Positions 1-14,097 of a stretch of DNA of 14,292 nt are shown in pieces. The position numbers and the translations under genes are program-made. This DNA comes from Anaerolineae bacterium. GTDB taxonomy: Bacteria > Chloroflexota > Anaerolineae > DUEN01. The stretch's first letter is position 1. Each line of letters starts with the position of its first letter. The notes under the pieces were generated by a model. That model ran no database searches and was not told the DNA's origin. It worked only from the letters and a program-made list of their open reading frames with translations. The stretch is from NCBI GenBank assembly GCA_034433615.1, contig DAOUAJ010000382.1, positions 1 to 14,292 on the forward strand, read 5' to 3'.

Positions 1-2480
1 GCTGCCGTGTGAGACGCCGTGCCGGATGCAGTATCTCGATCAGCACGCACTTCCAGGTAGACAGGCGCTTCTTCTCCGGCTTCCAACCGGATTTCTCCTG
101 CCTGGCTATCTGCGGGTGGAAAGGGAGGTTCCAGATAAGAGATCACTCCCACAGCCGTGGCCGAGAAGCCGGGCAGATCGTACAAGGTAAACGATTGTCC
201 TGGCGTCAACGCCACACGCCCCTGTAAGTCGTAGTACACGCCGTCCACCCAGGCGTCTCGTACCTTGTCCGTGATGACGTAACGCACCCCTGCCAAGTCA
301 AGTATACGACTGGCGGGGATCTCTTGCAATTGTTCGCGCAGCCGGCCGTCGGGAAGCAGGCGATCAGGGGTGATGAACAGGGTCTGGAACCAGGTATATC
401 GAGCCAGTGGCAGGATACCGCCGTCGTAGCCATCAATGCTGGGCAAGTGCAGCAGCAATGGCAGATTAGGAGCGATGATCTCCTTCAGTTTGGCTGCGAC
501 CACATAATCCCGCAAGCCAGCTTCATCCAGGTCATCGGCCAGGAGCTGGCGTATCTCTGGCAAATCGCCAGGATCGTAGTGAATGCCTGACATGGAGAGG
601 AAACGGCCAGGGGCAGCCAGCAGGTGAGCCGGCGCCGTGCGCAATGAGGTCACCGCCTGGGGAGCGGAAGGGTGGTTGAAATCCAGCGGTAGCGCTGCCG
701 CCAATAATTCACCGTAGAGTAGAAAGAGGACCAGCGGGCCGACCAGCGGGCGTAGCCGGACGGGCCACCGCTCCTGCACCAACAGACCAGCCGTGACGAC
801 CGCCAGCCCTGCCCACGCAGTGAGGGTAGCCCGGCCAGGCCACTGTTGAAGCACCAACAACGTGACCAGCAGCACACTTCCCACTCCGGCCAGGATTTGG
901 CGCCAGCGGTAAGCCATGATCCAGTCCCAGACGATGGCCATGCGAGCCCGCAGTTGCAGAGCATCAGGCATGATCAGCCGATCCAGCCCTATCCCGGCCA
1001 ACAGGGCGATGGCCAGCGCGTACCAGGCCAGCCAGCGCGGGGGCACACGAAACAGCCCGAATCCGGGGATCACTTTGTAGAACAAGGGATAGAGGGGTGT
1101 GTAGCCGCCTAAGGCCAGGAGCAGCCCGCCCGTGGCCAGCGTCGCCAGAGGCACCTGCAACGGGTGGTGCTCCGATCGCGGGGAGCCTGTCCCTGGTGTC
1201 TGTCCTGAAACTCGCCCCCCCGCGATGGGCGAAGGTCTCCTGACCGAGCCCTTTTTCGCCTCGGTCGGGAGACCTTCAGCGATCAAGGGGACGAGGGACG
1301 AAGGACGAGGGACGAGGGAGTGGGTTTTCATCGGCCGTGGCGCCGCCCGCGGCGGCATGGGGAACTGTCCTGAAAAAGGGACGAGGGACGAGGGACGAGG
1401 GACGAGGAAGCGGGTGTTCATCGGCCATGGTGCCGCCTCCGGCATGGACATCTGTCCTGCATTTTGGCCTGACGGCCAGCCTGTCTTGGCTGTCAGGCCG
1501 GGGAGCAACCCTAGCCCGGCCAGAGTGAGGCCCAGGATGCCCACGTAAGCCAGGTACTCGGAGAAAACAGGGGTGCCGAACGCGGCTTCGGGCTGCATCG
1601 CGTAAGGGGGCAGCAACGCCAGGAGCAGCATGTTCGGTTTCAATGAGAAGGCTATCGTCTCCAGGAAGCCCAGCCCGCCTGCGCGAATCGAGAGCCTGGC
1701 CAGTTCCATCGTCGGCAGAATCTGGACCGCCGAGATCGCGACAGCCAGAACCACGGCCACAGCCAGCGATCCCCATCGGGTGAGTAGTACGCCGGCCAAT
1801 GATCGAGCCCTTTGCCGCTGGCGAACAGCTTCCCAGAGCGGCCCGGCCAGCGCGTACACCCCTAATCCGGCCGTGGAGATATACGTAGCCTGAGTGTGTC
1901 CGGCCAGCAGTTGCAGCGCCAGCACCAGCGCCAGTCCCGCCAGTGGCAGCAGCCTGGCCCGTATGGTCGAGCCACACGCGACGTGATCCAGCAGAAGTAA
2001 AGCCAGAGGAAACCAGGCTAACGCGTTAATTTGGTTGATCTGGCCGGCATGCCCGGCCAGGTGCCCGCCCAGCGCATAGATCAACGCCGCCGCCAGCGCG
2101 CCGGTGCGGCTCAGACCCAGGTGGCGTGCCAACGCGTAAGTGAAGCAGCCGGCCAGCCAGATGTGCAAGACCAGTGACCAGATGAGCGCACGTTCTGGAC
2201 GCAGCCAGATCAATGGCCAATGTAGTGGGTAGAAGACGGCGGCCTGAGGGTTGGCCAGAAAAGGGACACCCAGGAAGAGATACGGGTTCCACAACGGCAA
2301 ATGACCTGCCCGCAGCGCCTCCGCGCGATAGGCCCAGTAGGGCGTGAAATAGGTGAAGGCGTCGCCCCGGGCCAGCACCTTATTCGTCAGAGCTGCGTGG
2401 CGAAAAGCCCATACGCTAAGCGCCAATAGCCCCAGCATGACCAGCAATGGTCCGACGCCCTGGCGTACTCTAGCGGCCAT
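1..2480 (-). CDS. Large polytopic membrane protein, YfhO-like (GT-C-type glycosyltransferase family); partial, 3' end lies beyond the window start (826 or more codons)
   Basis: Hand translation of the minus strand from ATG 2480-2478 runs to position 1 with no stop in frame (checked in 60-nt blocks). It is not in the ORF track because it has no stop inside the window. Listed ORFs 2026..2292 and 1276..1977 are out-of-frame shadows of it. The N-terminus (MAARVRQGVGPLLVMLGLLALSVWAF...GDAFTYFTPYWAYRAEALRAGHLPLWNPYLFLGVPFLANPQAAVFYPL) recalls the YfhO-family N-terminal motif from memory. Many TM helices are followed by a soluble C-terminal domain of roughly 230 aa (nt 1-700), which is the YfhO architecture. 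The ATG overlaps the stop of the upstream PMT_2 gene (ATGGCCGCTAG). The family call needs HMM confirmation. Confidence 0.65.
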   Translation of the reverse strand, partial: MAARVRQGVGPLLVMLGLLALSVWAFRHAALTNKVLARGDAFTYFTPYWAYRAEALRAGHLPLWNPYLFLGVPFLANPQAAVFYPLHWPLIWLRPERALIWSLVLHIWLAGCFTYALARHLGLSRTGALAAALIYALGGHLAGHAGQINQINALAWFPLALLLLDHVACGSTIRARLLPLAGLALVLALQLLAGHTQATYISTAGLGVYALAGPLWEAVRQRQRARSLAGVLLTRWGSLAVAVVLAVAISAVQILPTMELARLSIRAGGLGFLETIAFSLKPNMLLLALLPPYAMQPEAAFGTPVFSEYLAYVGILGLTLAGLGLLPGLTAKTGWPSGQNAGQMSMPEAAPWPMNTRFLVPRPSSLVPFSGQFPMPPRAAPRPMKTHSLVPRPSSLVPLIAEGLPTEAKKGSVRRPSPIAGGRVSGQTPGTGSPRSEHHPLQVPLATLATGGLLLALGGYTPLYPLFYKVIPGFGLFRVPPRWLAWYALAIALLAGIGLDRLIMPDALQLRARMAIVWDWIMAYRWRQILAGVGSVLLVTLLVLQQWPGRATLTAWAGLAVVTAGLLVQERWPVRLRPLVGPLVLFLLYGELLAAALPLDFNHPSAPQAVTSLRTAPAHLLAAPGRFLSMSGIHYDPGDLPEIRQLLADDLDEAGLRDYVVAAKLKEIIAPNLPLLLHLPSIDGYDGGILPLARYTWFQTLFITPDRLLPDGRLREQLQEIPASRILDLAGVRYVITDKVRDAWVDGVYYDLQGRVALTPGQSFTLYDLPGFSATAVGVISYLEPPFPPADSQAGEIRLEAGEEAPVYLEVRADRDTASGTASHTA
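1287..1440. repeat. Two ~60-bp direct repeat copies (1287-1347 and 1378-1440) inside the YfhO-like CDS. Each begins with tandem heptamers GGGACGA: four copies with one mismatch at 1288-1315, and three perfect copies at 1378-1398
   Basis: Seen directly: gggacgagggacgaaggacgagggacgagggagtgggttttcatcggccgtggcgccgcc versus gggacgagggacgagggacgaggaagcgggtgttcatcggccatggtgccgcctcc. On the coding (minus) strand the heptamer reads CTCGTCC, and each repeat copy encodes the peptide (N/K)T(R/H)(F/S)LVPRPSSLVP. Confidence 0.8.
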
Positions 2481-4182
2481 CAAGTTTCGTTCGCTCAATA
2501 CGATACACGACGAATGAAAGGCTGCCGTCCCCCCGATGCGTCTCGAAGCGGGGGATCATGACGATCCCGCGAGCAGCCAGCGCCGCCTGGGCCGCGTCGC
2601 GCTCAGCCAGGCGCCAACCAGGAAAAACGATGTAACGTACGATCTGAGGAGGACCGTCGGCATCGGCCACCAGCGCCTCCGTGGAGTCGTAATAACGAAA
2701 GTGGAAAGGCACATCATAGAGGTAGTAACGCCAGTGCCAGCCCAGCCAGCGATGGTATAACACCGCGCCTGAAGGCAGTTCCGATCTGAGGAAAGTGGCC
2801 ACCAGGTCAATGCCATCATACGCGCCATGGTCGGAGCCGACCGGGAAACCGCTTTTCGCTGCCGTCACGGCCGGGCTGGCCAGCATCAAGGTGAACAGGG
2901 CTGTCATCGCCAGGACGCCGGCGCGCCGCGCTGCCGGACCGAACCGCTGTTCCCAGCCGCGCAGGGTCGCTTCTGCCAGAGTCAGGACAACCCGCGCCCC
3001 CAGAAGCGCAACGATCGGCGCCAGGGGAAGTAAGTAACGATCCCAAATCTGGAAGTTGACCACGATGTGCAGCGCCATGTAGACCAGCCCGTATCCCAGT
3101 AGAATCAGATCGGTTCTCCAGGCCGTGGGCAGTACCACGGGGGAAGAAGGCCTGTTTTCAGCCTGCGGAGGCAGGCTTCGCAAAGGTAGTAGCCGCGACT
3201 TCCAGTCGCCCAGCTTCTGTCGCCATGCCTGCCACGCCAGCCCCGGCAGCCCGATGGCCAGTAGCGCGTTCAGCCAGGGCGAGCCGGTCAGATAACTCAG
3301 CCACGGCAGCCACTTGATCGCGCGGGCGGGCCACTCAGCGAGAGATGTCAGCCAAAGCCCGCCGTACGAGATGGCACTCTGCGCCAGGAACCCAGGGCGG
3401 TCAGGCGGCAGATAGCGCCAACTGTCCCACTGGATTGCCTTCCAGATCGGATAGCCCACACCCAGAACGAAGAGGCTGGCGGCAATCGGCGCACTCCAAC
3501 GCCCAGGCAACGTTGGTCCCAGGGCAGCAAGCCGGGCGATAACCGACAACCGGTAACCGAAGAGCAGATGTCTCCGCGTCTCCGTATCCTCGCGTCCTCG
3601 CGTCCCCGCGTCTCCCCTTCCTGAGATCACCCATCCCAGCCCCAAAACCAGCGGCAGGAAGAAGATCCCCTGCTGCTTGGTGATGGCGGCCATTCCGATT
3701 CCCAGCCCGGCCAGACCCCAGCCCCCGTACGCCGCCGCCAGGCAGCCAGCCAGCCCGAAGAAAATCATGAGGGGATCGGTGAAGGCGGTGGGACTGAACA
3801 GGATCGCCATAGGCGATGCGGTGAAGAGGGTCGTCGCTACCCAGGCGGTGTGCTCCCCATACAGCCGGCGGGCCAGCGCGTAGACGAGCGGGATGCTGAG
3901 AAGGCCGGCCAGCAGCCCCGGCAACCGGGCCACTACCTCACTGGGACCGAGCCAGGTGAAAAAGTGGGCCAGGACGTACAGGAAAAGGGGCGGCTTGTCT
4001 ACCGGCACCGTGCGCAGCATGACATCGCGCTGGGTACTGATCAGCAGCCCCCAGGATGCATAGAGGGCCTCATCTTGGTGAAATCGGTGCGCCCACAGTG
4101 GTGGCAGGCGTAGTAACAGCCCGGCCAGCATCATGCTGGCCAGCACCAACTTGTCGCGGAGAATCAACCCAGGCGTAGCCAT
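2470..4182 (-). CDS. PMT_2 / ArnT-like GT-C membrane glycosyltransferase (GT39/GT83-type). Start assigned to ATG 4182; the ORF-track TTG start at 4275 is the alternative
   Basis: Family hallmarks: a DE motif in the first extracytoplasmic loop (RFHQDEALYASWG), the KPPLFLYVLAHFF motif (KPPL-Y-W in ArnT/PMT_2), ARLPGLLAGLLSIPLVYALARRLYG, roughly 11-13 TM helices, and a C-terminal soluble domain of about 130 aa. ATG 4182 places TM1 (LVLASMMLAGLLL) about 12 residues in. TTG 4275 directly abuts the GT2 stop. Neither start has a strong SD. Confidence 0.75.
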   Translation of the reverse strand: MATPGLILRDKLVLASMMLAGLLLRLPPLWAHRFHQDEALYASWGLLISTQRDVMLRTVPVDKPPLFLYVLAHFFTWLGPSEVVARLPGLLAGLLSIPLVYALARRLYGEHTAWVATTLFTASPMAILFSPTAFTDPLMIFFGLAGCLAAAYGGWGLAGLGIGMAAITKQQGIFFLPLVLGLGWVISGRGDAGTRGREDTETRRHLLFGYRLSVIARLAALGPTLPGRWSAPIAASLFVLGVGYPIWKAIQWDSWRYLPPDRPGFLAQSAISYGGLWLTSLAEWPARAIKWLPWLSYLTGSPWLNALLAIGLPGLAWQAWRQKLGDWKSRLLPLRSLPPQAENRPSSPVVLPTAWRTDLILLGYGLVYMALHIVVNFQIWDRYLLPLAPIVALLGARVVLTLAEATLRGWEQRFGPAARRAGVLAMTALFTLMLASPAVTAAKSGFPVGSDHGAYDGIDLVATFLRSELPSGAVLYHRWLGWHWRYYLYDVPFHFRYYDSTEALVADADGPPQIVRYIVFPGWRLAERDAAQAALAARGIVMIPRFETHRGDGSLSFVVYRIERTKLDGR

Positions 4183-4275
4183 TGGCTCGATACTGTCCAG
4201 CACAAATCGCGTGCCGGGCCAGGTGCCGATTTCAATATGGAAGCCCGGCTCAGCACGGCAAATCCGCCAAAGCAA

Positions 4276-5040
4276 CTAATCCACAAAGCGATACTTCAGC
4301 AACGTCCATAGAGCAATCAGGCCATCCTTGAACCCGATCTTCTTCCCCTCGATGTACTCCCGCCCGGTGTACGAGATGGGTACCTCGTAGATGCGGTAGC
4401 CGCGTTTTAACACCTTGGCGGTCACCTCCGGCTCGAAGTCAAAGCGGCGGGAGCGCAACGGGATGTTGCGGATGACATCAGCCCGAAACGCCTTGTAACC
4501 TGTCTCCATATCAGAGAGGATGCTATCGTATAGCAGATTGGTGAGCAAAGTCAGCGCTTTGTTGGCAACCATGTGCCAGAAGAGCATGGCGGTGTGAGGA
4601 CCGCCCAGAAAGCGGGAACCATACACGACGGCCGCCCGCCCCTCGATGATCGGCTTAAGGAGCACAGGGTAATCGCGCGGGTCATACTCCAGGTCAGCAT
4701 CCTGGATGAGCATGATGTCACCGGTGGCATGCTGAATAGCCGTGCGCACGGCGGCACCTTTGCCTTGGTTGCGCTCGTGGTAAAAAACGCGGATATCGCC
4801 GGCTTTCTCTTCCTCTTGCAAAATCTCGCGGCTACCGTCAGTGGAGCCATCGTCCACGACCACAATCTCCTTTTCCAGGACGATAGGACCTGGCTGACGC
4901 AGGATAATCGAAATTCCACTATTGATCTCCAGCGGGACGGCACGTACTCTGGTCAGAATCTCCTGGATGGTGGTTCGCTCGTTGTAGACAGGGATCAGGA
5001 TCGAGAGCTTCAAAGGGGCCTCCAAGACGCTGATGGTCAC
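4276..5040 (-). CDS. GT2 polyprenyl/dolichyl-phosphate sugar synthase (DPM1/Ppm1/GtrB/CsbB-like), 254 aa, GTG start
   Basis: LSILIPVYNE...VVVDDGSTDGS...IQDADLEYDP is the classic GT-A DXD and ED architecture. It is short and lacks C-terminal TM helices, so it resembles Ppm1/DPM1. The SD GAGAAGG lies 7 nt upstream of GTG 5040. It is the first gene of a GT2 to PMT_2 to YfhO-like series with adjacent or overlapping junctions. Confidence 0.85.
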   Translation of the reverse strand: MTISVLEAPLKLSILIPVYNERTTIQEILTRVRAVPLEINSGISIILRQPGPIVLEKEIVVVDDGSTDGSREILQEEEKAGDIRVFYHERNQGKGAAVRTAIQHATGDIMLIQDADLEYDPRDYPVLLKPIIEGRAAVVYGSRFLGGPHTAMLFWHMVANKALTLLTNLLYDSILSDMETGYKAFRADVIRNIPLRSRRFDFEPEVTAKVLKRGYRIYEVPISYTGREYIEGKKIGFKDGLIALWTLLKYRFVD

Positions 5041-5234
5041 ATTATAGCCTTCTCGTTAACAAGGGACAACCCCGAAGGTTCAGGCCGGAGCCTCCATTTC
5101 GGCCTCCAAAGTCTTACATTTCATCATCAGATAGCAAGATCGTGGAAGCTGAAAACGACATCCTGGAGTCCCAAAGATCCTTCGGAGTTCGATGAAGCAA
5201 CGTATGAACTAACGTCTCGGTTCCAGGCGCGCAA

Positions 5235-5260
5235 ACGCCCCGCCATATCCGACGGGGCGT
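5235..5260. terminator. 8-bp GC-rich hairpin (ACGCCCCG, 10-nt loop, CGGGGCGT) 23 nt downstream of the response-regulator stop; weak U-tract
   Basis: Seen in sequence. On the minus-strand RNA it is followed by UUUGCG, only three U residues. On the plus strand it is followed by AGCUCUUAUUGG. It is the only obvious structure between the regulator gene and the GT2 gene. Confidence 0.3.
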
Positions 5261-5283
5261 AGCTCTTATTGGTCACGTCCAGG

Positions 5284-5868
5284 TCACCCTTCGCCCACCT
5301 GATGGGCCAGAATGATGGCCCAGGCGACCTCCTTCATAGGTTTACGGTTGTTCATGGACATCTTCTGAATTTTACGGAACGCCTCGGCCTCCGACAGCCC
5401 CTGGCGGTCCATGAGGATGCCTTTGGCACGATCCACTAACTTGCGCGTCTCCAGCGCCTCTTGCAGATCGTCTACCTGCTTTTGCATCTCCATGAACTCA
5501 CGAAAGCGGGCCAAAGCTACCTCGATAGCAGGAGCCAGGTCGGTCTCCCGGATTGGCTTCACCAAGTAGCCGGTCACACCAGCCTCGCGCGCGCGCGCCA
5601 CCAGGTCGTGCTGACTATAGGCGCTGAGCAGCAACACCGGAGCGATGCGCTCCTCCGTCAGAATCTTAGCCGCCTCGATGCCGTCCATATCAGGCATCTT
5701 GATGTCCATGATCACGATATCCGGCTTGAGCTCTCTGGCCAGATTCACGGCACTGCGTCCGTCGCCGACCTCCCCCACGACCAGGTAACCCAGGTTGGTT
5801 AACATCTCCCGTAGATCCAATCGGATCAATGCCTCATCGTCGGCAATCACGACCCGAGTCTTTTCCAC
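5284..5868 (-). CDS. ANTAR-domain response regulator (receiver plus ANTAR RNA-binding output; PdtaR/AmiR/NasT-like)
   Basis: Receiver motifs: VVIADDEALIRLDL, IVIMDIKMPDMDGIEAAK, VTGYLVKP. The C-terminus QEALETRKLVDRAKGILMDRQGLSEAEAFRKIQKMSMNNRKPMKEVAWAI is a typical ANTAR helix bundle. The SD GGGAGG lies 9 nt upstream of ATG 5868, 6 nt after the kinase stop. Confidence 0.85.
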   Translation of the reverse strand: MEKTRVVIADDEALIRLDLREMLTNLGYLVVGEVGDGRSAVNLARELKPDIVIMDIKMPDMDGIEAAKILTEERIAPVLLLSAYSQHDLVARAREAGVTGYLVKPIRETDLAPAIEVALARFREFMEMQKQVDDLQEALETRKLVDRAKGILMDRQGLSEAEAFRKIQKMSMNNRKPMKEVAWAIILAHQVGEG

Positions 5869-5874
5869 GGCTTA

Positions 5875-7452
5875 TCACCCTCCCAAAGGCAATTTTGGAA
5901 AAGAGACCTCAGCGACAACGCCATCCTTCTGATACAAAGAGAAGGTCCCTTTGAGATCGTCTCGAACCAAGGTTTGCACAATCTGCAGGCCCAAAGTTCG
6001 AGCCTGCTCCAACGAGAATCCCTCCGGCAGGCCGTGTCCATTGTCCACGATGCGGATCACGACCCTGTTCGCGATGTTGGTCAGATCGGCCTGAATGTGC
6101 CCCTCTTCCTCGCCATCAAATCCATGTTCCAGGGCGTTCAGGAGCAATTCGTTAAAAACCAGCGCGCAGGCAGTGGCCTGATCTTTGTGCAGATAAATGC
6201 TAGGGCCCCTCAACTCAATGCGGATGCGACAACCCGGCGCTAAAGTGACTTGCTCGGTCTGGCTGATGATGCGCTGAAACACGTCACGAATGTTGATGTG
6301 CTGCCCTCTGTCATGGGATAGATAATCATGGATGACGGCTACACTCAGGATGCGATTAATGGCCTCTTCCAGTTCGTGGCGGGCCTCCTCCGTCTGACAT
6401 CGCCTGGATTGCATACGCAGCACCGAAGCGATGTTTTGCAAGTTGTTCTTCACCCGATGATGAACTTCCTGCACCATCGCCCGTTGCACGTTCAGCTCTT
6501 GCTGCCTGTGCCGCGCTTCCGTGTCATCATGCACCAGGATCAATGCGCCCGCTTGGCGTCGGTAATTCGCCCGTCGGGATAGACGGTCACCGATGGCCGC
6601 AGGCAGCGGCCACGGAGGATCATAACGCAGCAGCGGGATCACCTGGCGAATCCAGTAGCGAGTTTGCTCTTCCCCTTCCCATTGCTGGCATAGCCCGGTT
6701 CGCAGCGCCGTGGCTACCAGCTCGTCGTCCCGAGTCTGCAGATCGCCTATCCACTTGCCGCGGAGATCTTCTAAATAACCCAGGTGACGGTACAGGTGGG
6801 TGGCAATCCCGCTTAGATAAGTGATGCGTCGTTGTAAGTCGGTGACGACGATCCCATCCCATTCGCCGAATGGTCCTAAAGCTTTTGCACCCCGCAGATC
6901 ACCCCGTATAGCCATCTGTTGAACCCAAGAAAGGGCCCGCTGGAAGACGCGAGAACGGCGGCGGTGACGCTCTCGTTCGATCAGGTTGGTCTCGATGGCT
7001 AACGCGGCAATGATCTGGCCGCGAGGGCCATAGATGGGGTAGACTTCTTGAATGACAGGGGCATCGCCCTCGACCACTCGTTGATGGTGGCCAGATACCC
7101 CATCGTTTAAAGCGCGCAAGACGAGAGGTTCGTCCGCCTGCTTGACTGTTTGCCCCAGCAACGAGTTGGGATGGAGGGGAGAGATAGAACGCGGCTGTGC
7201 CTGGGCGATGATAGCTGCCGAACGAGCGTTCAGGCGGCCGTAGAGAAGCACATCCGCCCGGCTGACTCCGGCCGTGATCGCCAAACCATCCTCCACCTGC
7301 TGGAGAAACTGAAGATCCGCATCACTCAAGCCCTGACAGCTTTTGACGATCGGGTGCATATGAGTCCATAGGCTACCAAGCCAGGCTCCCATGCCTGGGA
7401 TTCTCTTTATCAAGTGCAACATACAACAAAAGCCGACGGCATTGCAAGCCAT
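5875..7452 (-). CDS. Cytosolic sensor histidine kinase, HisKA_2 plus HATPase_c with N-terminal GAF/PAS-like sensor region (PdtaS-like). Start uncertain (7452, 7392 or 7359)
   Basis: The H-box EVHHRVKNNLQNIASVLRMQ is the HisKA_2 signature. The ATPase motifs NELLLNALEHG and DNGHGLP are present. No TM segments. The gene is immediately upstream of and cotranscribed with the ANTAR regulator. None of the three candidate ATGs has a convincing SD. Confidence 0.8.
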   Translation of the reverse strand: MACNAVGFCCMLHLIKRIPGMGAWLGSLWTHMHPIVKSCQGLSDADLQFLQQVEDGLAITAGVSRADVLLYGRLNARSAAIIAQAQPRSISPLHPNSLLGQTVKQADEPLVLRALNDGVSGHHQRVVEGDAPVIQEVYPIYGPRGQIIAALAIETNLIERERHRRRSRVFQRALSWVQQMAIRGDLRGAKALGPFGEWDGIVVTDLQRRITYLSGIATHLYRHLGYLEDLRGKWIGDLQTRDDELVATALRTGLCQQWEGEEQTRYWIRQVIPLLRYDPPWPLPAAIGDRLSRRANYRRQAGALILVHDDTEARHRQQELNVQRAMVQEVHHRVKNNLQNIASVLRMQSRRCQTEEARHELEEAINRILSVAVIHDYLSHDRGQHINIRDVFQRIISQTEQVTLAPGCRIRIELRGPSIYLHKDQATACALVFNELLLNALEHGFDGEEEGHIQADLTNIANRVVIRIVDNGHGLPEGFSLEQARTLGLQIVQTLVRDDLKGTFSLYQKDGVVAEVSFPKLPLGG

Positions 7453-7541
7453 CGGCCCGGAGTGGCTGGAGTGGTGTCTTAGCTACCTGAACGCGGATGC
7501 TCGCCCCCCTTCGCCAAACCCGGGGTGAGCGACTTTCGTGA

Positions 7542-7618
7542 TGGTCGGGGCGGGCGGATTTGAACCGCCGGCCACTTGAACCCCATTCAAGTGCGCTACC
7601 TGGCTGCGCTACGCCCCG
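7542..7618 (-). tRNA. tRNA-Pro (anticodon GGG), 77 nt including the encoded CCA
   Basis: Folded by hand: acceptor CGGGGCG/CGCCCCG (C1:G72, typical of bacterial tRNA-Pro), D-stem GCGC/GCGC, anticodon stem CTTGA/TCAAG with loop A-T-GGG-G-T (G37), T-stem GGCGG/CCGCC with T-loop TTCAAAT, discriminator A, CCA. Confidence 0.9.
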
Positions 7619-7629
7619 AAAGCAAAAAC

Positions 7630-7658
7630 ATTATATCAGAAGGCTCAGAAAAAGGCAA
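7630..7658 (-). promoter_or_regulatory. Putative sigma70 promoter for tRNA-Pro (minus strand): TTGCCT-N17-TGaTATAAT, with the -10 about 11 nt upstream of the tRNA 5' end
   Basis: Reverse complement of 7630-7635 is TATAAT, preceded by an extended -10 TG. Reverse complement of 7653-7658 is TTGCCT with a 17-nt spacer. Confidence 0.45.
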
Positions 7659-7769
7659 ATGACCCGGACGAAAGACGTCGTACAGCCTGCCCTCGCCAGA
7701 GGGGCCAGGGGACGGGCAATTACCGCAGATGCTGAAGTATCGAAAAGCTCTGGTAGCCACTATAGGTTA

Positions 7770-7807
7770 TTGACAAAATGGTTCTTTGGGGTTATACTGA
7801 GTATAAT
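7770..7807 (+). promoter_or_regulatory. Promoter P1: TTGACA (7770-7775), 17-nt spacer, TATACT (7793-7798), with a second TATAAT at 7802-7807
   Basis: Consensus -35 with exact 17-nt spacing to a 5/6 -10 element, seen directly. It sits in an AT-rich stretch upstream of the 84-codon ORF. Confidence 0.55.
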
Positions 7808-7822
7808 AGAACGGGTGTTCTA
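7807..7822. promoter_or_regulatory. Perfect 16-bp palindrome TAGAAC-GGGT-GTTCTA containing a GAAC-N4-GTTC core (Gram-positive/Chloroflexi-type LexA/DinR Cheo-box motif), overlapping the P1 -10 and transcription start region
   Basis: Seen directly. GAAC-N4-GTTC is the established LexA operator core in Bacillus-type and Chloroflexi-type SOS regulons. The symmetry extends beyond the core to a full 6-4-6 palindrome. Its position over the promoter core fits a repressor site. Confidence 0.4.
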
Positions 7823-7854
7823 TGCCAGCGCAGGGGAAGTCACCCATTGCGTCT

Positions 7855-7883
7855 TTGACCAACAAGGCCGTCTGTGCTAGAAT
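7855..7883 (+). promoter_or_regulatory. Promoter P2: TTGACC (7855-7860), 17-nt spacer, TGcTAGAAT extended -10 (7875-7883)
   Basis: Seen directly. A second near-consensus promoter about 80 nt upstream of the start codon. Confidence 0.5.
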
Positions 7884-7902
7884 CGTCCCAATTTGATCCC
7901 AT

Positions 7903-7942
7903 GGCCCATGCGGGCCACAAGCGGCCCATGCGGGCCACAAGG
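7903..7942 (+). repeat. Two tandem 20-bp direct repeats GGCCCATGCGGGCCACAAG(c/g). Each contains a short hairpin (GGCC-CAUGCG-GGCC or GGCCC-AUGC-GGGCC) and ends 5 nt before the SD
   Basis: Seen directly. 7903-7921 and 7923-7941 are identical 19-mers. They lie in the 5' leader between P2 and the AGGAGG at 7947-7952. Confidence 0.7.
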
Positions 7943-7964
7943 TTAGAGGAGGAGAAGAGAAACT

Positions 7965-8219
7965 ATGGCCTATCGCAATAACACCGGTCTCGATATTTGG
8001 TTCAAGGATGAGATTTTGCAGACATTACGGGCAGTGGACTCAGCAAATATGGACATTGCTGGCGAGATTGATTCGCTGGAAATGCGCTTCTACCGACGCG
8101 GTTTTGAAGCAGCTATCCGCTCCGTGGCCGAGGCATTTGGCCTGGACTATCACCCTCCAGTCTCCAGGCGCCACGGCTCTCCTCCTCCTGTTGACGTGAC
8201 TTCACGCCTTATCCATTAA
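7965..8219 (+). CDS. Small hypothetical protein (84 aa, soluble, predicted helical N-terminal half, Pro-rich C-terminal tail). No recognisable family
   Basis: ATG 7965 is preceded by AGGAGGAG. It is driven by two strong promoters. No TM segment. Third-position and overall G+C are visibly lower than in flanking genes. Confidence 0.6.
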   Translation: MAYRNNTGLDIWFKDEILQTLRAVDSANMDIAGEIDSLEMRFYRRGFEAAIRSVAEAFGLDYHPPVSRRHGSPPPVDVTSRLIH

Positions 8220-8298
8220 GTAGATGGCAGAAAGTTCCTTGCAGAAAGCCTGACGACTGGAAGTCGCGGGCAACGACTGCAAAGCTCACCTTCGTGGG

Positions 8299-9792
8299 CT
8301 AGGTTTCAGTCGCCTTAGTTTCTGGCGGCTCTCGGTGCTCGGACTGGACCATTGGGGGCTGGCCAATAAAGACCTGGGCGTGGGGATTTTCCATCAATTT
8401 TTCCATAGCGCTAATGTAGCGCATCCCTGCTGCGGTGTCTTCCGCGCAATGGGTCATGATCCAGCCTAGCACACGCTCGACACGTTGAGCCACGTCAGGC
8501 GGCAACTTGCGCCAGGCTTCCTCCAGGCTGTTAATGTATTCTGAGATCGCCTTCTGTCGGGCTGCCAACCGGACCTCTTCAAAGGTGCGTACTCGCTTGG
8601 CGTCCGCCTCTCCCTGGGAAATACTGAGTTGTTTCTGGCGATCAGCGATCCACACGGCCAAGACCCGATCTGCGACCTCTTCCGGCAGTGTCATCGTATT
8701 CACTGCCATCCCTATGATCTCCACACCCCATCCGCTTGTCAGCCGACGGCACTCTTCAGTCGCTTCACTTCCAATCAATTCCAGGATCGCGGCAGACGTT
8801 TCCTCAGTGATCGGGAATAGGCCCTCTAGTGTATGACGTCCGATCACACGCCGCAATGCGATCTCGGCAACACTGGTCACAGCCCGTGGCCACTCATTTG
8901 GAGCCAGCGTCACCTTTAGCATTTGTACGATGTCTTCACGGCGTGCGGGGCAGAGGCTATCTTTGATGACCCCGCTCATCTCGTCATCTCCTTCCTCACC
9001 GTCAGCCAGATCGGCTTGTGGAAACCGGTAGCCTACTGTGGCAGAGACATGAAGAAGAGAGACACCATCTGCCGTGAGTACGTCGCCTGGTTCCACTGGC
9101 AAGAACCGTGGGTTCAGCGGTACCACTCCGCGTACACGCTCAAACGGCTTCAGAGTCACGGTGCCTGGACCAACGATCCGTGTGATCTTACCACCGCGTT
9201 CGAGCACTACTGCCTGGCAAGGGCGTACCACCAGGATGCCAGGGCCTCCTAACAAGCGCAGGATGCCAGCCTTCTTCTCATCCTTGATCTCACCATCCTC
9301 CACGATGAGAAAAGGCCCTTGCAAGCCAGCGATCAAGGTTAGCAGTTGCCGCACAACTGCACTGCGACCTAAGTCGCGCAGCGGATGGGCAGCCAGTATC
9401 AGCTCACTGCTAAGGAAAGCCAGAACAAGAAGAAAGGTAACGAGCAGACTCATAGGGGTCAGGTAGCTCACTAACAGCAGGATGAAGGCCAGGGCTGCTT
9501 CCTGAATCGCCATCTCGCTGAATGGTTTGCCCAAGGAGAGGGGAATCAATGTGAGGGCTAGCCCGGTACCCGGAAATAGGATCAGCAATCCCAGGAAGGT
9601 AAATCGTCGGAAGTTCTGAGGTACGAGCAACAGGAAGCCGCTGCCCATTAATATGCTGATTATCACCAGATGGAGGAAAGCACCCGGGATGGGCACGAAA
9701 ATGGTTGCCATGCCCAACGCAATCAACACGATACCCAGAGCCAGACGAACTCCAGAGCGCTGAGGGGGCCTCACTGATAATAACGTTTCCAT
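8299..9792 (-). CDS. SPFH/band-7 (stomatin/flotillin/HflK-like) domain membrane protein with a 4-5 helix N-terminal membrane region and a C-terminal coiled-coil; 497 aa from ATG 9792
   Basis: SPFH core ILVVRPCQAVVLERGGKITRIVGPGTVTLKPFERVRGVVPLNPRFLPVEPGDVLTADGVSLLHVSATVGYRF. A coiled-coil-like stretch QGEADAKRVRTFEEVRLAARQKAISEYINSLEEAWRKL. The SD GGAGGTGA lies 4 nt upstream of ATG 9792. The track's GTG at 9816 adds 8 residues upstream of that SD. Confidence 0.85.
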   Translation of the reverse strand: METLLSVRPPQRSGVRLALGIVLIALGMATIFVPIPGAFLHLVIISILMGSGFLLLVPQNFRRFTFLGLLILFPGTGLALTLIPLSLGKPFSEMAIQEAALAFILLLVSYLTPMSLLVTFLLVLAFLSSELILAAHPLRDLGRSAVVRQLLTLIAGLQGPFLIVEDGEIKDEKKAGILRLLGGPGILVVRPCQAVVLERGGKITRIVGPGTVTLKPFERVRGVVPLNPRFLPVEPGDVLTADGVSLLHVSATVGYRFPQADLADGEEGDDEMSGVIKDSLCPARREDIVQMLKVTLAPNEWPRAVTSVAEIALRRVIGRHTLEGLFPITEETSAAILELIGSEATEECRRLTSGWGVEIIGMAVNTMTLPEEVADRVLAVWIADRQKQLSISQGEADAKRVRTFEEVRLAARQKAISEYINSLEEAWRKLPPDVAQRVERVLGWIMTHCAEDTAAGMRYISAMEKLMENPHAQVFIGQPPMVQSEHREPPETKATET

Positions 9793-9922
9793 CACTTCAC
9801 CTCCTGCAGAAGACACGAAGACCAGCTTCTAATGCGCACCCCACCTTTACGTCGCTCATCCGACATGCTAGCTTGCACAACTATATCATATTTTCTTTAT
9901 CTGGGAAAGTCTTTACCAGATT

Positions 9923-10864
9923 TTATCGAGAACGATCTTCTGGTAGAAAAGAGGCCCCCATCGCCTCCAATGCGGGGAGGCCGAACCCTTCGTAGGTGGG
10001 GATAAACAGGAAGACCTCGGCCAGCGCGTACAACGCCGGCTTGTCCTCCTCCGCGATCCAGCCGGGGAAGCGCACCCACGCCTCGATCCCGAGCTCACGG
10101 GCGAGGCGGCGAGGGTCCGGCATGAACGGGGTATCCCGAGCAGGCAAGCGGCCGGCGATGACCAGCGGCACATCACGATGTCGCCCCTGCCGCACGAGGA
10201 GGGCATACGCTGCCAGGGTGCGCTGCACGTTCTTGCGCACATCAAAGCCAGCAAAGTAGAGGATGAAACGCTGAGGAAGAGCGTAGCGCGTTCGCACCCG
10301 CTCCAGCTCCTCCACTGTGAGCGGTCGGCTATAGCGCTCGTCGGCTGCCAGGTACACTGTGTGCACCCGTTCCGGCGGGACACTCAGGTGACGGATGAGG
10401 TCCCGGCGCGAGGCCTCGGAATCGGTCAGAATCAGGTGAGCATGGCGGGCAGTGCGTGCCACCAGGGCTGTGTACAGCCGCTGTAAAAGGCCCCCGCGAT
10501 ACTCAGGCAACAGGAGCGGAATCAGGTCGTGCACGGTGACGACGAGGCGACACGGCCGCCACCACGGTGATCCCCAATAGGGCACGTGGGCTACGTCAAT
10601 GTGCAGGCGGCGGCAGGCCAGGGGGAAGGCGATCTGTTCAAACCATACCTTGGCCAGGTCCCCCTGCAGGAGGTCAAAAGGCGTAGCCGCGCACACGATT
10701 TGCCAGCCGGGTATATCAGCCACAGTCGGCACCTGCCGGGGCAATATCAGCCAACGCGCATCATCCGGCGAGACACGGGGTAGCCAGCGCACCAAGCCGT
10801 GCAAGACTTGCCCGCTGCCGGTGCCCGTCTGCCCCCAAAACCAGCCGTTTAACGCAATCCGCAT
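9923..10864 (-). CDS. GT4-family (GT-B fold) glycosyltransferase, truncated at the C-terminus. The ORF stops 4 residues after the conserved EAMA motif, so it is a probable gene remnant or pseudogene
   Basis: N-terminus MRIALNGWFWGQTGTGSGQ and C-terminus ...FIPTYEGFGLPALEAMGASFLPEDRSR* are typical of GT4. A normal GT4 continues about 70-90 aa past EAMA (xGxPVV... nucleotide-binding helices). Here the frame runs into AT-rich intergenic DNA that carries the SPFH promoter region. Confidence 0.7.
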   Translation of the reverse strand: MRIALNGWFWGQTGTGSGQVLHGLVRWLPRVSPDDARWLILPRQVPTVADIPGWQIVCAATPFDLLQGDLAKVWFEQIAFPLACRRLHIDVAHVPYWGSPWWRPCRLVVTVHDLIPLLLPEYRGGLLQRLYTALVARTARHAHLILTDSEASRRDLIRHLSVPPERVHTVYLAADERYSRPLTVEELERVRTRYALPQRFILYFAGFDVRKNVQRTLAAYALLVRQGRHRDVPLVIAGRLPARDTPFMPDPRRLARELGIEAWVRFPGWIAEEDKPALYALAEVFLFIPTYEGFGLPALEAMGASFLPEDRSR

Positions 10865-10883
10865 GTTGTCCCGAAAATAGCAC

Positions 10884-10932
10884 TCAGCGGTCAGCGATCA
10901 GCCGTCAGCGATTAGCGATCAACGATTCGCGA
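10884..10932. repeat. Degenerate tandem heptamer array, 7 copies on the plus strand: TCAGCGG TCAGCGA TCAGCCG TCAGCGA TTAGCGA TCAACGA TTCGCGA. On the downstream gene's (minus) strand this reads nnGCTGA x7
   Basis: Seen directly. It occupies the short intergenic gap between the epimerase stop (10919-10921) and the GT4 start (10864), and overlaps the last 4 codons of the epimerase. Confidence 0.75.
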
Positions 10933-11851
10933 TTAACTCGCGAAAGAACTCGACCGTGCGCGCGAGTCCTTCTTTCAGGCTGACCGTAACCTCCCATCCT
11001 AACTCCCTCTTGGCCCTGCTGGCATTCAGATAAATCCGGAAGACTTCCCCCTGTTTGGACGGACCATAATGAGCATCGCCGGAGTAGCCGGTAGCCGCCT
11101 TCAGCTCAGCGAAAATGGTATTAATGTCAGTCGGGACGCCCGAGCCGATATTGTAGACCCCTTCTCCTCGATCCAGGGCCAGCACATTGGCACGGGCGAT
11201 GTCACCCACATACACGAAGTCCCGCTGCTGCTCTCCGCTGCCGTTGATCGTGGGCTGCTTGCCCCGTAGCATCAGGCCGGTAAAGATGGCCACGACGCCG
11301 GCCTCACCAAGCGGATCCTGGCGCGGCCCGTAAACGTTGGGGTAACGCAAGCTGACGTAAGACAGTCCGTAATTATGCCGATACAGATACAGGTAATGCT
11401 CGACCGCGTGCTTACTCGCGCCATAGGGATCCAGCGGGTTGATAGGGTGATCTTCAGTGACCGGCAGAAATTCGGGTTCGCCGTACACTGCGCCTCCTGT
11501 CGAGGCGTAGATGAAACGCTGACACCCGTATTTGCGCGCCATTTCCAGCAGGAGAATGGAACCCAGGACGTTCACAGCGCCGTAGGCGATAGGCTCTTCC
11601 ATGGATTGGCGCACGTTAGCCAGCGCCGCTTGATGGCTGATCACTTCCGGACGTTCGGCAGCGAACACTTCTTCCACTTTCTCCTGCTGTCGGATGTCAA
11701 CTTTACAGAACTTTGCCTTCGGGTTCACATTCTCCCACTTGCCTGTGACCAGGTTGTCAATCACAACGACGTCGTGTCCAGCCGCAATGAACGCGTCCAC
11801 AACGTGGGAGCCGATGAACCCCGCGCCGCCTGTCACCAGAATCTTACTCAT
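10919..11851 (-). CDS. NAD-dependent nucleoside-diphosphate-sugar epimerase/dehydratase (GalE-like UDP-hexose 4-epimerase family), 310 aa from ATG 11851
   Basis: Rossmann motif MSKILVTGGAGFIGSH. Catalytic residues S in ASTGGAVYG and YxxxK in YGASKHAVEHY. The SD AGGAG lies 6 nt upstream of ATG 11851. The track's upstream extension (MRMDDSDD...) falls inside the predicted 5' UTR, downstream of the promoter. Confidence 0.85.
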   Translation of the reverse strand: MSKILVTGGAGFIGSHVVDAFIAAGHDVVVIDNLVTGKWENVNPKAKFCKVDIRQQEKVEEVFAAERPEVISHQAALANVRQSMEEPIAYGAVNVLGSILLLEMARKYGCQRFIYASTGGAVYGEPEFLPVTEDHPINPLDPYGASKHAVEHYLYLYRHNYGLSYVSLRYPNVYGPRQDPLGEAGVVAIFTGLMLRGKQPTINGSGEQQRDFVYVGDIARANVLALDRGEGVYNIGSGVPTDINTIFAELKAATGYSGDAHYGPSKQGEVFRIYLNASRAKRELGWEVTVSLKEGLARTVEFFRELIANR

Positions 11852-11910
11852 GGACACTCCTATTCTTTGATGTTTATCCGTGTCATCGGAATCGTCCATC
11901 CTCAAAAGTC

Positions 11911-12037: not shown

Positions 12038-12160
12038 AGGCCCAGGGGGGCCTTCTGTGCAGAGGGGCTGAGGTGCAAGGGAGCTAGGGAGAATCTCTCC
12101 GCTGCTCCTCTGCCCCTCTGCTCCCTAGGGGGTGCCCTCCAAACCTCCCCTCTGGGGCTC
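12038..12160. repeat. GC-rich cluster of interleaved inverted repeats. Hairpin AGGCCC-AGGG-GGGCCT (12038-12053). IR A: GCAGAGGGGC (12059-12068) with GCCCCTCTGC (12112-12121). IR B: CTAGGGAG (12084-12091) with CTCCCTAG (12121-12128). A third CCCCTCTG copy in the palindrome CCCCTCTGGGG (12147-12157)
   Basis: Seen directly. It lies between the divergent epimerase and M50 promoters, outside both predicted transcripts. Confidence 0.5.
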
Positions 12161-14017: not shown

Positions 14018-14054
14018 TCAGCTTTCAGCCAGCCTGCTGATAGCTGAAAGCTGA
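14018..14054 (+). other. Perfect 12-bp stem hairpin TCAGCTTTCAGC, 13-nt loop, GCTGAAAGCTGA, immediately after the tyrA stop. No U-tract
   Basis: Seen directly. Its 3' arm forms the first units of the heptamer array at 14034-14077. Confidence 0.55.
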
Positions 14055-14077
14055 CCGCTAACTGCTGAAGGCTGACA
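14034..14077 (+). repeat. Tandem heptamer array nnGCTGA x6 (ctGCTGA taGCTGA aaGCTGA ccGCTaA ctGCTGA agGCTGA), ending 20 nt before ATG 14098
   Basis: Seen directly. It is the same motif, period and orientation relative to the downstream gene as the array at 10884-10932. Confidence 0.75.
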
Positions 14078-14097
14078 GTTAACAGGAGGAAAATCCC

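Follow-up and report, generated by a model that had tools for sequence, protein, structure and literature searches.

A conserved Chloroflexota operon encoding a predicted lipid-sugar synthase and glycosyltransferases of two GT-C families

Protein O-mannosylation in actinobacteria is carried out by Ppm1–Pmt, and DPM1 and Ppm1 are members of the polyprenyl-phosphate glycosyltransferase class without transmembrane (TM) helices. In CsbB–YfhO-type pairs, a GT2 enzyme that makes C55-P-sugar adjoins a GT-C of the YfhO family, which carries a large ectodomain and a last TM helix; transfer takes place outside the membrane (PMC8035078). The initial annotation of the locus described here held that known systems couple one synthase to one GT-C, which is wrong, as two systems show. 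The S. mutans pgf operon (PgfS, PgfE, PgfM1, PgfM2) encodes one GT-A (PgfS) and two YfhO-type GT-Cs, of which PgfM1 is essential, while deletion of PgfM2 merely shifts PrsA mobility (bioRxiv 10.1101/2024.05.05.592596). The second GT-C thus appears to elaborate an acceptor that it shares with the first, and for such a division of work these phenotypes set a precedent (bioRxiv 10.1101/2024.05.05.592596). In L. monocytogenes 4b, a single GT-A, GttA, is required for galactosylation of both LTA and WTA via two GT-Cs, GtlB and GttB: one lipid-sugar synthase and the same sugar on two acceptors, the logic that had been predicted for our locus. In the review table the two Listeria enzymes appear under separate systems, not as a translationally coupled pair, and neither has a YfhO domain there (GttB, PMT-2; 4b GtlB, none) (PMC8035078).

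Here we analyse a Chloroflexota locus on a window that is an entire contig of 14,292 nt. Exact-sequence look-ups of its GT2 and PMT_2 proteins gave no encoding contig, and the PMT_2 protein's database copy lies on a contig of this same length, so the YfhO C-terminus missing from the window is not recoverable. [quoted passage not shown] As in Ppm1–Pmt and ArnC–ArnT, a DPM1-/ArnC-like GT2 accompanies a GT39/GT83-like GT-C with a first-loop Asp/Glu motif, but here there is a second GT-C, and the first is not an ArnT ortholog (15.2 bits against the cutoff of 567 for equivalog NF009784). As in CsbB–YfhO, a YfhO-type enzyme is present, but the GT2 lacks TM helices, no GtrA-type flippase lies nearby, and a GT-C of another family is inserted between GT2 and YfhO and translationally coupled to the latter; similarity to canonical YfhO hardly goes beyond the last ~60 residues of the Pfam model. 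The locus shares with pgf one GT-A synthase and two GT-Cs in a single operon, but the two GT-Cs of pgf are paralogs of the YfhO type, its acceptors are Ser/Thr-rich protein regions and an epimerase belongs to the operon, whereas the GT-C families here have no detectable sequence relation. The heteromeric GT-C pairs Pmt1–Pmt2 of yeast and EmbA–EmbB of mycobacteria are also paralogs of one family, unlike the pair here.

A three-gene operon conserved in Chloroflexota

The three open frames that the initial annotation had placed back to back on the minus strand, as one module, are present at the coordinates it gave, and both junctions read as described: the GT2 stop TAG (4278-4276) is followed at once by TTG 4275, and the PMT_2 stop and YfhO-like start overlap at 2480-2470 (ATGGCCGCTAG; Table 1). 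The grouping into a module is backed by a census of 80 species-level Chloroflexota loci, 63 of which had at least 2.6 kb upstream and were assessable for the triad. GT2, PMT_2 and YfhO genes are contiguous, with their order kept, in 32 of these 63, and YfhO is immediately preceded by PMT_2 in 53 of the 80. Sampled from the opposite side, all three PMT_2 homologs examined (3/3) have a YfhO gene next downstream. The triad is a real operon, widespread in Chloroflexota and conserved across Anaerolineae, Caldilineae and Thermoflexia; given its contiguity in half of the assessable loci, we reject chance juxtaposition. GT2 is the best conserved of the three (65–91% identity to orthologs), compared with 40–71% for PMT_2 and 47–76% for the YfhO-type protein. 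PMT_2 and YfhO form 59 adjacent pairs among 87 related loci, and 43 of these pairs have an available start codon that overlaps the PMT_2 stop, by 4 nt in 32 pairs and by 11 nt in six.

Table 1. Features of the Chloroflexota glycosylation locus and its upstream neighbours in the window.
Feature	Position	Strand	Remarks
YfhO-type GT-C glycosyltransferase, first 826 codons	1..2480	-	Final ~136 residues, last TM helix among them, fall past the contig end (gene runs off at position 1)
In-frame insertion in YfhO-like gene, lineage-specific	1182..1502	-	107 aa (residues 327-433); missing from 8/8 aligned homologs
PMT_2 stop / YfhO-like start overlap	2470..2480	-	11 nt (ATGGCCGCTAG); translational-coupling junction
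PMT_2-type GT-C glycosyltransferase	2470..4182	-	570 aa from probable ATG 4182; maximal ORF to TTG 4275
In-frame insertion in PMT_2 gene, lineage-specific	3124..3204	-	27 aa; from alignment
Second variable loop of PMT_2 gene	3537-3615	-	Encoded by 7-8-nt tandem repeats
GT2 glycosyltransferase, DPM1/Ppm1/ArnC type	4276..5013	-	245 aa from probable TTG 5013; maximal ORF to GTG 5040
Shine-Dalgarno GGAGG	5019..5023	-	5 nt upstream of TTG 5013; read directly in sequence
Sigma70-type operon promoter	5041..5069	-	TTGTCC, 17-nt spacer, TATAAT; consensus scan, 10/12 matches
Terminator-like hairpin	5231..5260	-	11-bp GC-rich stem, 4-nt loop, then UUUG; from fold; just 3' of pdtaR
PdtaR-like ANTAR response regulator	5284-5868	-	Pfam Response_reg, ANTAR
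PdtaS-like histidine kinase	5875-7452	-	Pfam GAF_PdtaS, HisKA_2

Pairing of YfhO with a CsbB/GtrB-like GT2 takes the form of a co-oriented cluster in the window and in the 32 contiguous triads, and GT2 directly adjoins YfhO without PMT_2 in five Chloroflexota loci (L063, L066, L076, L085 and L087), which ties the YfhO-type enzyme to GT2 as in CsbB–YfhO. In seven loci PMT_2–YfhO has no flanking GT2, and in a few YfhO stands by itself; linkage of the three genes is therefore not obligatory.

The GT2, its promoter and the upstream genes

The GT2 frame was correctly placed at 4276-5040, but not its start, which is most likely TTG 5013: this start has a Shine-Dalgarno sequence upstream and would yield MKLSILIPVYNE, shared with orthologs. 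The conserved TATAAT (5046-5041) immediately abuts GTG 5040, and TTGnCn-17-TATAAT precedes GT2 in at least eight loci (for example L001, L010, L018, L019, L022, L048 and L057).

An HMM search agreed with assignment to the DPM1/Ppm1-like family, matching PF00535 at E = 1.9e-33 (116.2 bits; gathering cutoff 23.3). The best solved matches were PfDPMS (5mlz, 4e-18) and ArnC (9bhc, 5e-15, with ArnC matches ranging to 2.5e-14), and the four best (E <= 2.5e-14) are all polyprenyl-phosphate glycosyltransferases; the first ordinary GT2 enzyme follows at E = 1.2e-7, and two such enzymes rank above GtrB (5ekp, 1.5e-6). The protein has a DxD-type motif, with QDADLEYDP invariant in six orthologs, and its YGSRF motif is likewise invariant in orthologs. 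No TM segment was found, no 19-residue window reaching a hydrophobicity of 1.5. The GT2 thus lacks the C-terminal TM helices of the GtrB/CsbB/ArnC subtype and resembles the TM-less DPM1/Ppm1/GacI subtype, in which GacI is a polyprenyl-phosphate-class enzyme with a partner, GacJ (PMC8035078).

Scores against NCBIfam equivalogs are far under every cutoff (the best, AglJ, 119.7 against 325 bits; ArnC, 61.9 against 529). The window GT2 is related to named enzymes but orthologous to none of them; its donor sugar, and even its lipid-acceptor activity, therefore rest on family resemblance. These low scores, the missing C-terminal TM helices and the seven PMT_2–YfhO loci without a flanking GT2 would also suit an ordinary glycan-extending GT2 that acts on a lipid-linked or soluble glycan, with the GT-C donors made elsewhere. 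We consider this improbable, since the four best solved matches are all polyprenyl-phosphate glycosyltransferases, TM-less enzymes of that class exist (DPM1, Ppm1 and GacI), and GT2 is the most conserved gene of the triad.

A pdtaS–pdtaR pair recurs upstream: L001 and L002 have it, and 13 of the 30 triads that could be assessed do. The hairpin separates the pair from the glycosylation operon in the window, and L001 and L002 carry equivalent hairpins 3' of pdtaR with compensating base changes. The window spacer between pdtaR and GT2 consists of this terminator and then a promoter only ~20 nt before the start codon, with no room for a leader; elsewhere the spacer varies from -31 to over 2400 nt, at times with nadE-glnA or a small reverse-strand ORF inside. 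A search of the region between pdtaR and GT2 against Rfam gave no RNA target at E <= 1. For these reasons we do not claim ANTAR control of the operon.

Two GT-Cs of different families

The middle gene was confirmed as a PMT_2 GT-C by PF13231 (E = 1.2e-12; 48.8 bits against a gathering cutoff of 26.1), and PF02366 passes too (25.1 against 22.7). Its start is most likely ATG 4182. Sequence-level PDB searches returned only noise for both GT-Cs, with no match of the PMT_2 protein to any solved GT-C, so fold searches were needed. The structural model of the PMT_2 protein has the GT-C fold, with ArnT and yeast PMTs among its best structural matches and an alpha/beta ectodomain of ~125 aa; the insertion and the variable loop have low pLDDT (62–75). 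FHQDEALY, in the first extracytoplasmic loop, follows the acidic motif pattern H-x-DEA-x-Y, and its D37/E38 (570-aa numbering) are invariant in 110 sequences.

Assignment of the third gene to YfhO stands for full-length orthologs, whereas the 826-codon frame itself has no significant Pfam match (YfhO, 7.1 bits, E = 2), the diagnostic C-terminal segment lying past the contig end. Orthologs of 962–967 aa, 72–76% identical to the frame, exceed the PF09586 cutoff via their C-terminal ~60 residues, and collinear homologs with 47–76% identity score 29.3–57.3 bits against the cutoff of 28.5. The model of an ortholog, used in place of the truncated, insertion-bearing window protein, has the GT-C fold: an N-terminal domain of several TM helices is followed by a large C-terminal domain outside the membrane, and a last TM helix is present; the ectodomain is beta-rich, ~430 aa, and gives weak carbohydrate-binding-module-like matches. 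D40, located where the first external loop starts, does not vary among 111 YfhO-type sequences and is the putative catalytic residue. The best NCBIfam matches of full-length orthologs are PgfM2 and PgfM1, with PgfS among those of the GT2. These matches are weak, however (12–33 bits for PgfM1/PgfM2 against cutoffs of 1400–1500), and with scores so far under the equivalog cutoffs the Chloroflexota proteins are not orthologs of the Pgf proteins. In relatives, the ~190-aa gene downstream has only sub-threshold matches to DUF6286/Asp23.

The apparent 107-aa insertion consists of two ~90-nt direct repeats, with runs of the heptamer GGGACGA and an inverted repeat of 31 nt. In the P0001 model its site is the loop of 3 residues that separates helix 315-326 from helix 330-350; the heptamer motif was not found in any of 87 related loci. 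This repeat-derived segment without a homolog, together with the fragment's lack of a significant Pfam match, could hint that an indel or an assembly error has joined two genes into the 826-codon frame, or that the genes of the triad are chance neighbours. Both halves of the frame, however, align collinearly and in the same frame with single ~960-aa proteins of many genomes, on which ground we reject a fusion of two genes, and the triad recurs in dozens of species. An artefact is accordingly very improbable.

The description of the two GT-Cs as unrelated is right in that they belong to different families, without a profile–profile sequence relation, but both models match the same GT-C structures. 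Could only one of them be catalytic, with the other an acceptor-recognition or scaffolding subunit? Their tight coupling hints at a 1:1 stoichiometry, and a second protein for acceptor binding has been proposed speculatively for some systems (PMC8035078). Both families nevertheless keep invariant acidic residues where GT-C catalytic residues sit, as the first external loop begins, along with many further invariant positions typical of active enzymes, and we judge this division of labour unlikely.

Adjacency of the two GT-C genes is almost universal, and the stop of one overlaps the start of the other, which argues for one functional unit in a single pathway. We therefore favour, with a probability of roughly 0.6, the reading that the operon, under its own sigma70-type promoter, would encode the GT2 and both GT-Cs as a unit of lipid-carrier glycosylation. 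The initial annotation had predicted instead that one synthase feeds two independent GT-Cs, which attach the same sugar to different acceptors, such as a protein in one case and a wall polymer in the other. The differing families and ectodomains of the GT-Cs are consistent with this, as are the five GT2–YfhO loci, where the YfhO-type enzyme would be able to work without PMT_2, and the Listeria 4b precedent, with galactose placed on LTA and WTA through GtlB and GttB (PMC8035078). However, independent branches do not need near-universal adjacency and stop/start overlap, and the GT-C genes of the Listeria precedent are not reported as a single coupled pair. Two independent branches are thus a possible arrangement but a less likely one than the single-pathway unit, which the overlap and reciprocal adjacency fit, as a stoichiometric unit, at least as well as they fit two acceptors.

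Translational coupling is evidence of co-expression, not of physical or sequential cooperation, and complex formation by the PMT_2-type and YfhO-type enzymes is a hypothesis drawn from it. To our knowledge, no heteromeric complex of two unrelated GT-C families has been described. A stronger version, in which the pair is an obligate heteromeric machine that builds or decorates a Chloroflexota-specific envelope polymer and whose expression is tied to the adjoining PdtaS/PdtaR (ANTAR) two-component system, found upstream in about a third of species, seems doubtful to us.

A predicted route to envelope glycosylation

[quoted passage not shown] The lipid-linked sugar would then be flipped by a protein encoded elsewhere: no GtrA- or Wzx-type flippase was found among the 13 window ORFs, where small ORFs were also searched for GtrA-like proteins, or in the called genes of L001–L006, and the flippase may lie at a distance like GtcA in Bacillus and Listeria (PMC8035078). 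Outside the membrane, both GT-Cs, predicted from their fold and invariant first-loop acidic residues to be catalytically competent, would use this donor, the YfhO-type enzyme with a large beta-rich C-terminal ectodomain that bears a likeness to carbohydrate-binding modules. The two may form a heteromeric complex, or they may work one after the other on a shared envelope glycopolymer or glycoprotein.

We know of no teichoic-acid acceptor in Chloroflexota. Chloroflexota cell envelope architecture is still under debate, and teichoic acids receive no mention in the envelope paper (PMC7332563). Our literature search found no paper naming YfhO along with Chloroflex*.

The operon is an uncharacterised form of the well-known multi-component transmembrane glycosylation systems and leaves the logic of lipid-carrier-dependent extracytoplasmic glycosylation unchanged: a lipid carrier in the membrane probably receives a sugar from the GT2, and two membrane enzymes probably pass this sugar to cell-surface targets. 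Conserved from promoter to end, it would mark a core envelope-glycosylation pathway of Chloroflexota that couples two GT-C families. With three genes, one promoter and a predicted catalytic Asp in each GT-C, it gives a concrete starting point in the search for the polymer or proteins that are modified, and the operon is a natural test case for whether GT-Cs of different families can work as a unit.

Gene layout and enzyme families

Inspection of open reading frames in the GC-rich window (55–65% GC) yielded three consecutive minus-strand frames within positions 1–5040 (5040–4276, 4275–2470 and 2480–1), the last of them open at the left end of a contig that is the whole 14,292-nt record. The junctions described in the initial annotation held: the TAG of the first gene (4278–4276) is followed without a gap by TTG 4275, and the ATG of the third gene opens an 11-nt overlap with the 3' end of the second (ATGGCCGCTAG at 2480–2470). 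The gene starts, however, needed correcting. GTG 5040, proposed as the start of the first gene, adjoins a TATAAT box; the orthologues begin with MKLSILIPVYNE, equivalent in the window to TTG 5013, which is preceded by GGAGG (5023–5019) and is the likely start. For the second gene, the orthologues' start aligns with M32 (ATG 4182).

The first gene encodes, as proposed, a GT2 protein (PF00535, E = 1.9e-33), a putative polyprenyl-phosphate sugar synthase. Its best NCBIfam relatives (AglJ, Dol-P-hexose transferase, ArnC, PpgS and PgfS) all fall far under their equivalog cutoffs. The nearest solved structures in a PDB sequence search are polyprenyl-phosphate glycosyltransferases: Pyrococcus DPMS (5mlz, 4e-18), three ArnC sequences in five entries (about 1e-14) and GtrB (1.5e-6). 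Orthologues retain the DAD motif (QDADLEYDP) and YGSRF without variation. We found no hydrophobic segment in the protein, which for this reason resembles the TM-less DPM1/Ppm1/GacI subtype, unlike GtrB, CsbB or ArnC. GT2 is the best conserved of the three genes, with identities of 65–91% versus 40–71% for PMT_2 and 47–76% for YfhO, ranges drawn from largely the same genome set.

The middle gene passes both PF13231 (PMT_2, E = 1.2e-12), as expected, and PF02366; a sequence search of its protein against the PDB gave no matches. Its AlphaFold model (110 homologues) is confident (pLDDT 91.8, pTM 0.91), except that a lineage-specific insertion of 27 aa and a repeat-encoded loop both have low pLDDT. 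The D and E of the first-loop motif FHQDEALY are invariant in 110/110 PMT_2 sequences.

Assignment of the third, 826-codon frame to YfhO stood only with the help of its orthologues. Alone, the frame has no significant Pfam or NCBIfam match (YfhO, E = 2), which at face value speaks against the assignment; the orthologues, however, pass the PF09586 gathering cutoff (29–57 bits versus 28.5) through their C-terminal ~60 residues, a part that in the window falls past the contig end. A database search returned thousands of homologues from Chloroflexota MAGs, ~950–1,000 aa in length, several of which carry the name 'YfhO family protein'. Orthologues of 72–76% identity are collinear with both halves of the frame, which rules out two separate genes. 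The model of P0001, the closest full-length orthologue, is very confident (pLDDT 93.4, pTM 0.91); in it, a membrane domain of multiple helices is followed by a beta-rich domain (490–920) and a final TM helix. All 111 YfhO-type sequences compared keep D40, which lies where the first external loop begins. From this collinearity, the PF09586 matches, the P0001 model and D40, we infer that the frame is one truncated YfhO-type GT-C gene. Among named proteins, PgfM2 and PgfM1 of Streptococcus mutans come closest to the full-length orthologues, with scores far under cutoff. The two GT-Cs do belong to different families, with a profile–profile probability of 0.3% and only the fold in common.

The YfhO-type gene also carries an in-frame insertion of 107 aa. 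At the DNA level it is built from a pair of direct repeats of ~90 nt with runs of the GGGACGA heptamer, together with a 31-nt inverted repeat. In the P0001 model, the insertion site is a positively charged loop of three residues. Because helix parity places this loop probably in the cytoplasm, the insertion, if not an assembly artefact, is probably tolerated.

Conservation and transcription

In a tblastn census of 80 loci, one genome per species (79 titled Chloroflexota and one only 'uncultured bacterium'; classes Anaerolineae, Caldilineae and Thermoflexia), PMT_2 lay directly upstream of YfhO in 53, and comparison of neighbourhoods revealed the contiguous triad in 32 of the 63 loci that have 2.6 kb or more of upstream sequence. 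The loci of the two closest relatives, L001 and L002, share the order PdtaS, PdtaR, GT2, PMT_2, YfhO, and genomes with 46–47% identical YfhO keep GT2–PMT_2–YfhO without pdtaSR. Other arrangements were PMT_2–YfhO without GT2 in the flank (seven loci), GT2 directly adjoining YfhO with PMT_2 absent (five) and pdtaSR directly adjoining YfhO (three). PMT_2 homologues at about 40% identity had a YfhO gene downstream in 3/3 sampled. Of 59 adjacent PMT_2/YfhO pairs, 43 offer a start codon that overlaps the stop of PMT_2 (4 nt in 32, 11 nt in 6). Taking the nearest start biases this count towards short distances; even so, the 4-nt overlap occurs far more often than chance would allow.

Right after YfhO, in a position past the contig end in the window, relatives encode a conserved membrane protein of ~190–215 aa, often followed by ScpB, with only sub-threshold DUF6286/Asp23 matches. 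Locus L088 (contig_60415, 2146–11479) is a variant cluster of sortase, GT2, 247-aa ORF, PMT_2, 225-aa ORF, YfhO and a PTPS_related (PF10131) membrane protein, in which a single GT2 precedes as many as three large genes resembling membrane transferases.

A near-consensus sigma70 promoter lies upstream of GT2. Since TTGnCn-17-TATAAT recurs ahead of GT2 in different species (L001, L010, L018, L019, L022, L048 and L057), this element is very likely the operon promoter, with GT2 as the first gene. A terminator-like hairpin follows pdtaR, with equivalents bearing compensating changes in L001 and L002, which indicates that pdtaSR and the glycosylation genes are separate transcription units in this clade.

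PdtaS/PdtaR are recurrent neighbours: of the 30 assessable triads, 13 have the pair upstream, as do 26 of all 80 loci; the PdtaS/ANTAR pair recurs at L001, L002, L010, L018, L019, L022, L024, L030, L050, L057, L061, L065, L069, L083 and L086. pdtaR overlaps GT2 in the Caldilineae-type loci L050, L065 and L086 and is 22 nt away in L083, and nadE-glnA intervene in L016 and L089. With the pdtaR–GT2 spacer so variable across loci, and nadE-glnA within some, a regulatory link to the triad is only a possibility; the window itself yielded no RNA target for the ANTAR protein.

In L010, L019, L048 and L057, a longer GT2 leader (about 60–130 nt) extends downstream of TATAAT; its first element is a GC-rich hairpin (GUGCGC..GGCC...GGCC..GCGC). 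A U-rich stretch comes next in some of these loci, so the leader could act as an attenuator; the hairpin is absent from the window and L001. A small hydrophobic opposite-strand ORF in the pdtaR–GT2 spacer is conserved in L019, L022, L048, L057 and L082 and absent from the window.

Repeats and other features of the contig

The intergenic heptamer/octamer arrays resemble those in the YfhO-type and PMT_2 genes, and almost none occur in L001 and L002. The first array is an inverted copy of the third. As a group, the arrays are reminiscent of cyanobacterial STRR repeats. The GT4 gene is probably truncated or frameshifted. A 20-nt tandem duplication and the neighbouring tRNA-Pro(GGG) are placed at 7903–7941 and 7542–7618, and promoter-like sites cluster at 7630–7883.

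Features in the window and, where a locus is named, in related loci
Feature	Position	Strand	Details
107-aa in-frame insertion, YfhO-type gene	1182–1502	minus	absent from homologues
27-aa lineage-specific insertion, PMT_2 gene	about 3124–3204	minus	from homologue alignment
Variable loop, PMT_2 gene	3537–3615	minus	7–8-nt tandem repeats (CGATAAC, GTCCCCGC)
Near-consensus sigma70 promoter	5041–5069	minus	TTGTCC, 17 nt, TATAAT at 5046–5041
Terminator-like hairpin	5260–5231	minus	11-bp GC-rich stem then UUUG, directly after pdtaR
PdtaS-like kinase and ANTAR response regulator	5284–7452	minus	upstream of triad
Perfect 20-nt tandem duplication	7903–7941		two copies of GGCCCATGCGGGCCACAAG; intergenic, beside tRNA-Pro(GGG)
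GT4 glycosyltransferase gene	9923–10864	minus	ends about 70 residues early (…FGLPALEAMGASFLPEDRSR, stop), inside Glycos_transf_1
GalE-like epimerase	10919–11905		next after GT4 gene
Heptamer/octamer tandem arrays	10884–10937, 12059–12124, 14036–14083		intergenic; units TCAGCGA, CTCCTCTG, GCTGAAA
Membrane protein after YfhO	L001 13110–13694, L004 10923–11510, L005 10975–11526, L089 9726–10379

Proposed mechanism and known systems

The triad is a conserved operon, and its products combine these domain families with GT-C folds and invariant acidic residues. Following the families, GT2 would charge polyprenyl phosphate with a sugar on the cytoplasmic side, the resulting lipid-sugar would be turned over by a flippase whose gene lies elsewhere, and both GT-Cs would transfer the sugar outside the membrane. 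Neither the window nor the relatives' neighbouring genes include a flippase; GtcA is encoded away from the operon in Bacillus and Listeria too, and TM-less GT-A enzymes can require a separate membrane partner (PMC8035078). Near-universal adjacency of the GT-C genes with stop/start overlap suggests that the two enzymes would be made in fixed proportion and serve one pathway, in which they could modify a single acceptor step by step or form a complex. We give this mechanism, with the two GT-Cs as one unit, a probability of roughly 0.6. The CBM-like ectodomain modelled for the YfhO-type protein hints at an acceptor bearing glycan.

The initial annotation had instead envisaged two independent acceptors receiving the same sugar, one through each GT-C. 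This has precedent in Listeria monocytogenes 4b, in which LTA and WTA both depend on the single GT-A GttA for their galactose, added via two GT-Cs (PMC8035078); given the coupling of the GT-C genes, we consider it the less likely reading here. That interpretation was partly supported overall, and its premise that known systems couple one synthase to one GT-C was inaccurate, being contradicted by GttA and by the S. mutans pgf operon, which comprises the GT-A PgfS, an epimerase and two YfhO-type GT-Cs, and in which PgfM2 loss only alters PrsA mobility (bioRxiv 10.1101/2024.05.05.592596). The present operon differs from both systems in its combination of a PMT_2-type with a YfhO-type GT-C, the translational coupling of the two GT-C genes, its TM-less synthase and its phylum, Chloroflexota. 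A literature search found no papers mentioning YfhO together with Chloroflex*, and the Chloroflexota envelope is poorly defined (PMC7332563). Overall, the triad is a well-supported Chloroflexota operon for glycosylation, conserved and as yet uncharacterised, whose logic is already known.
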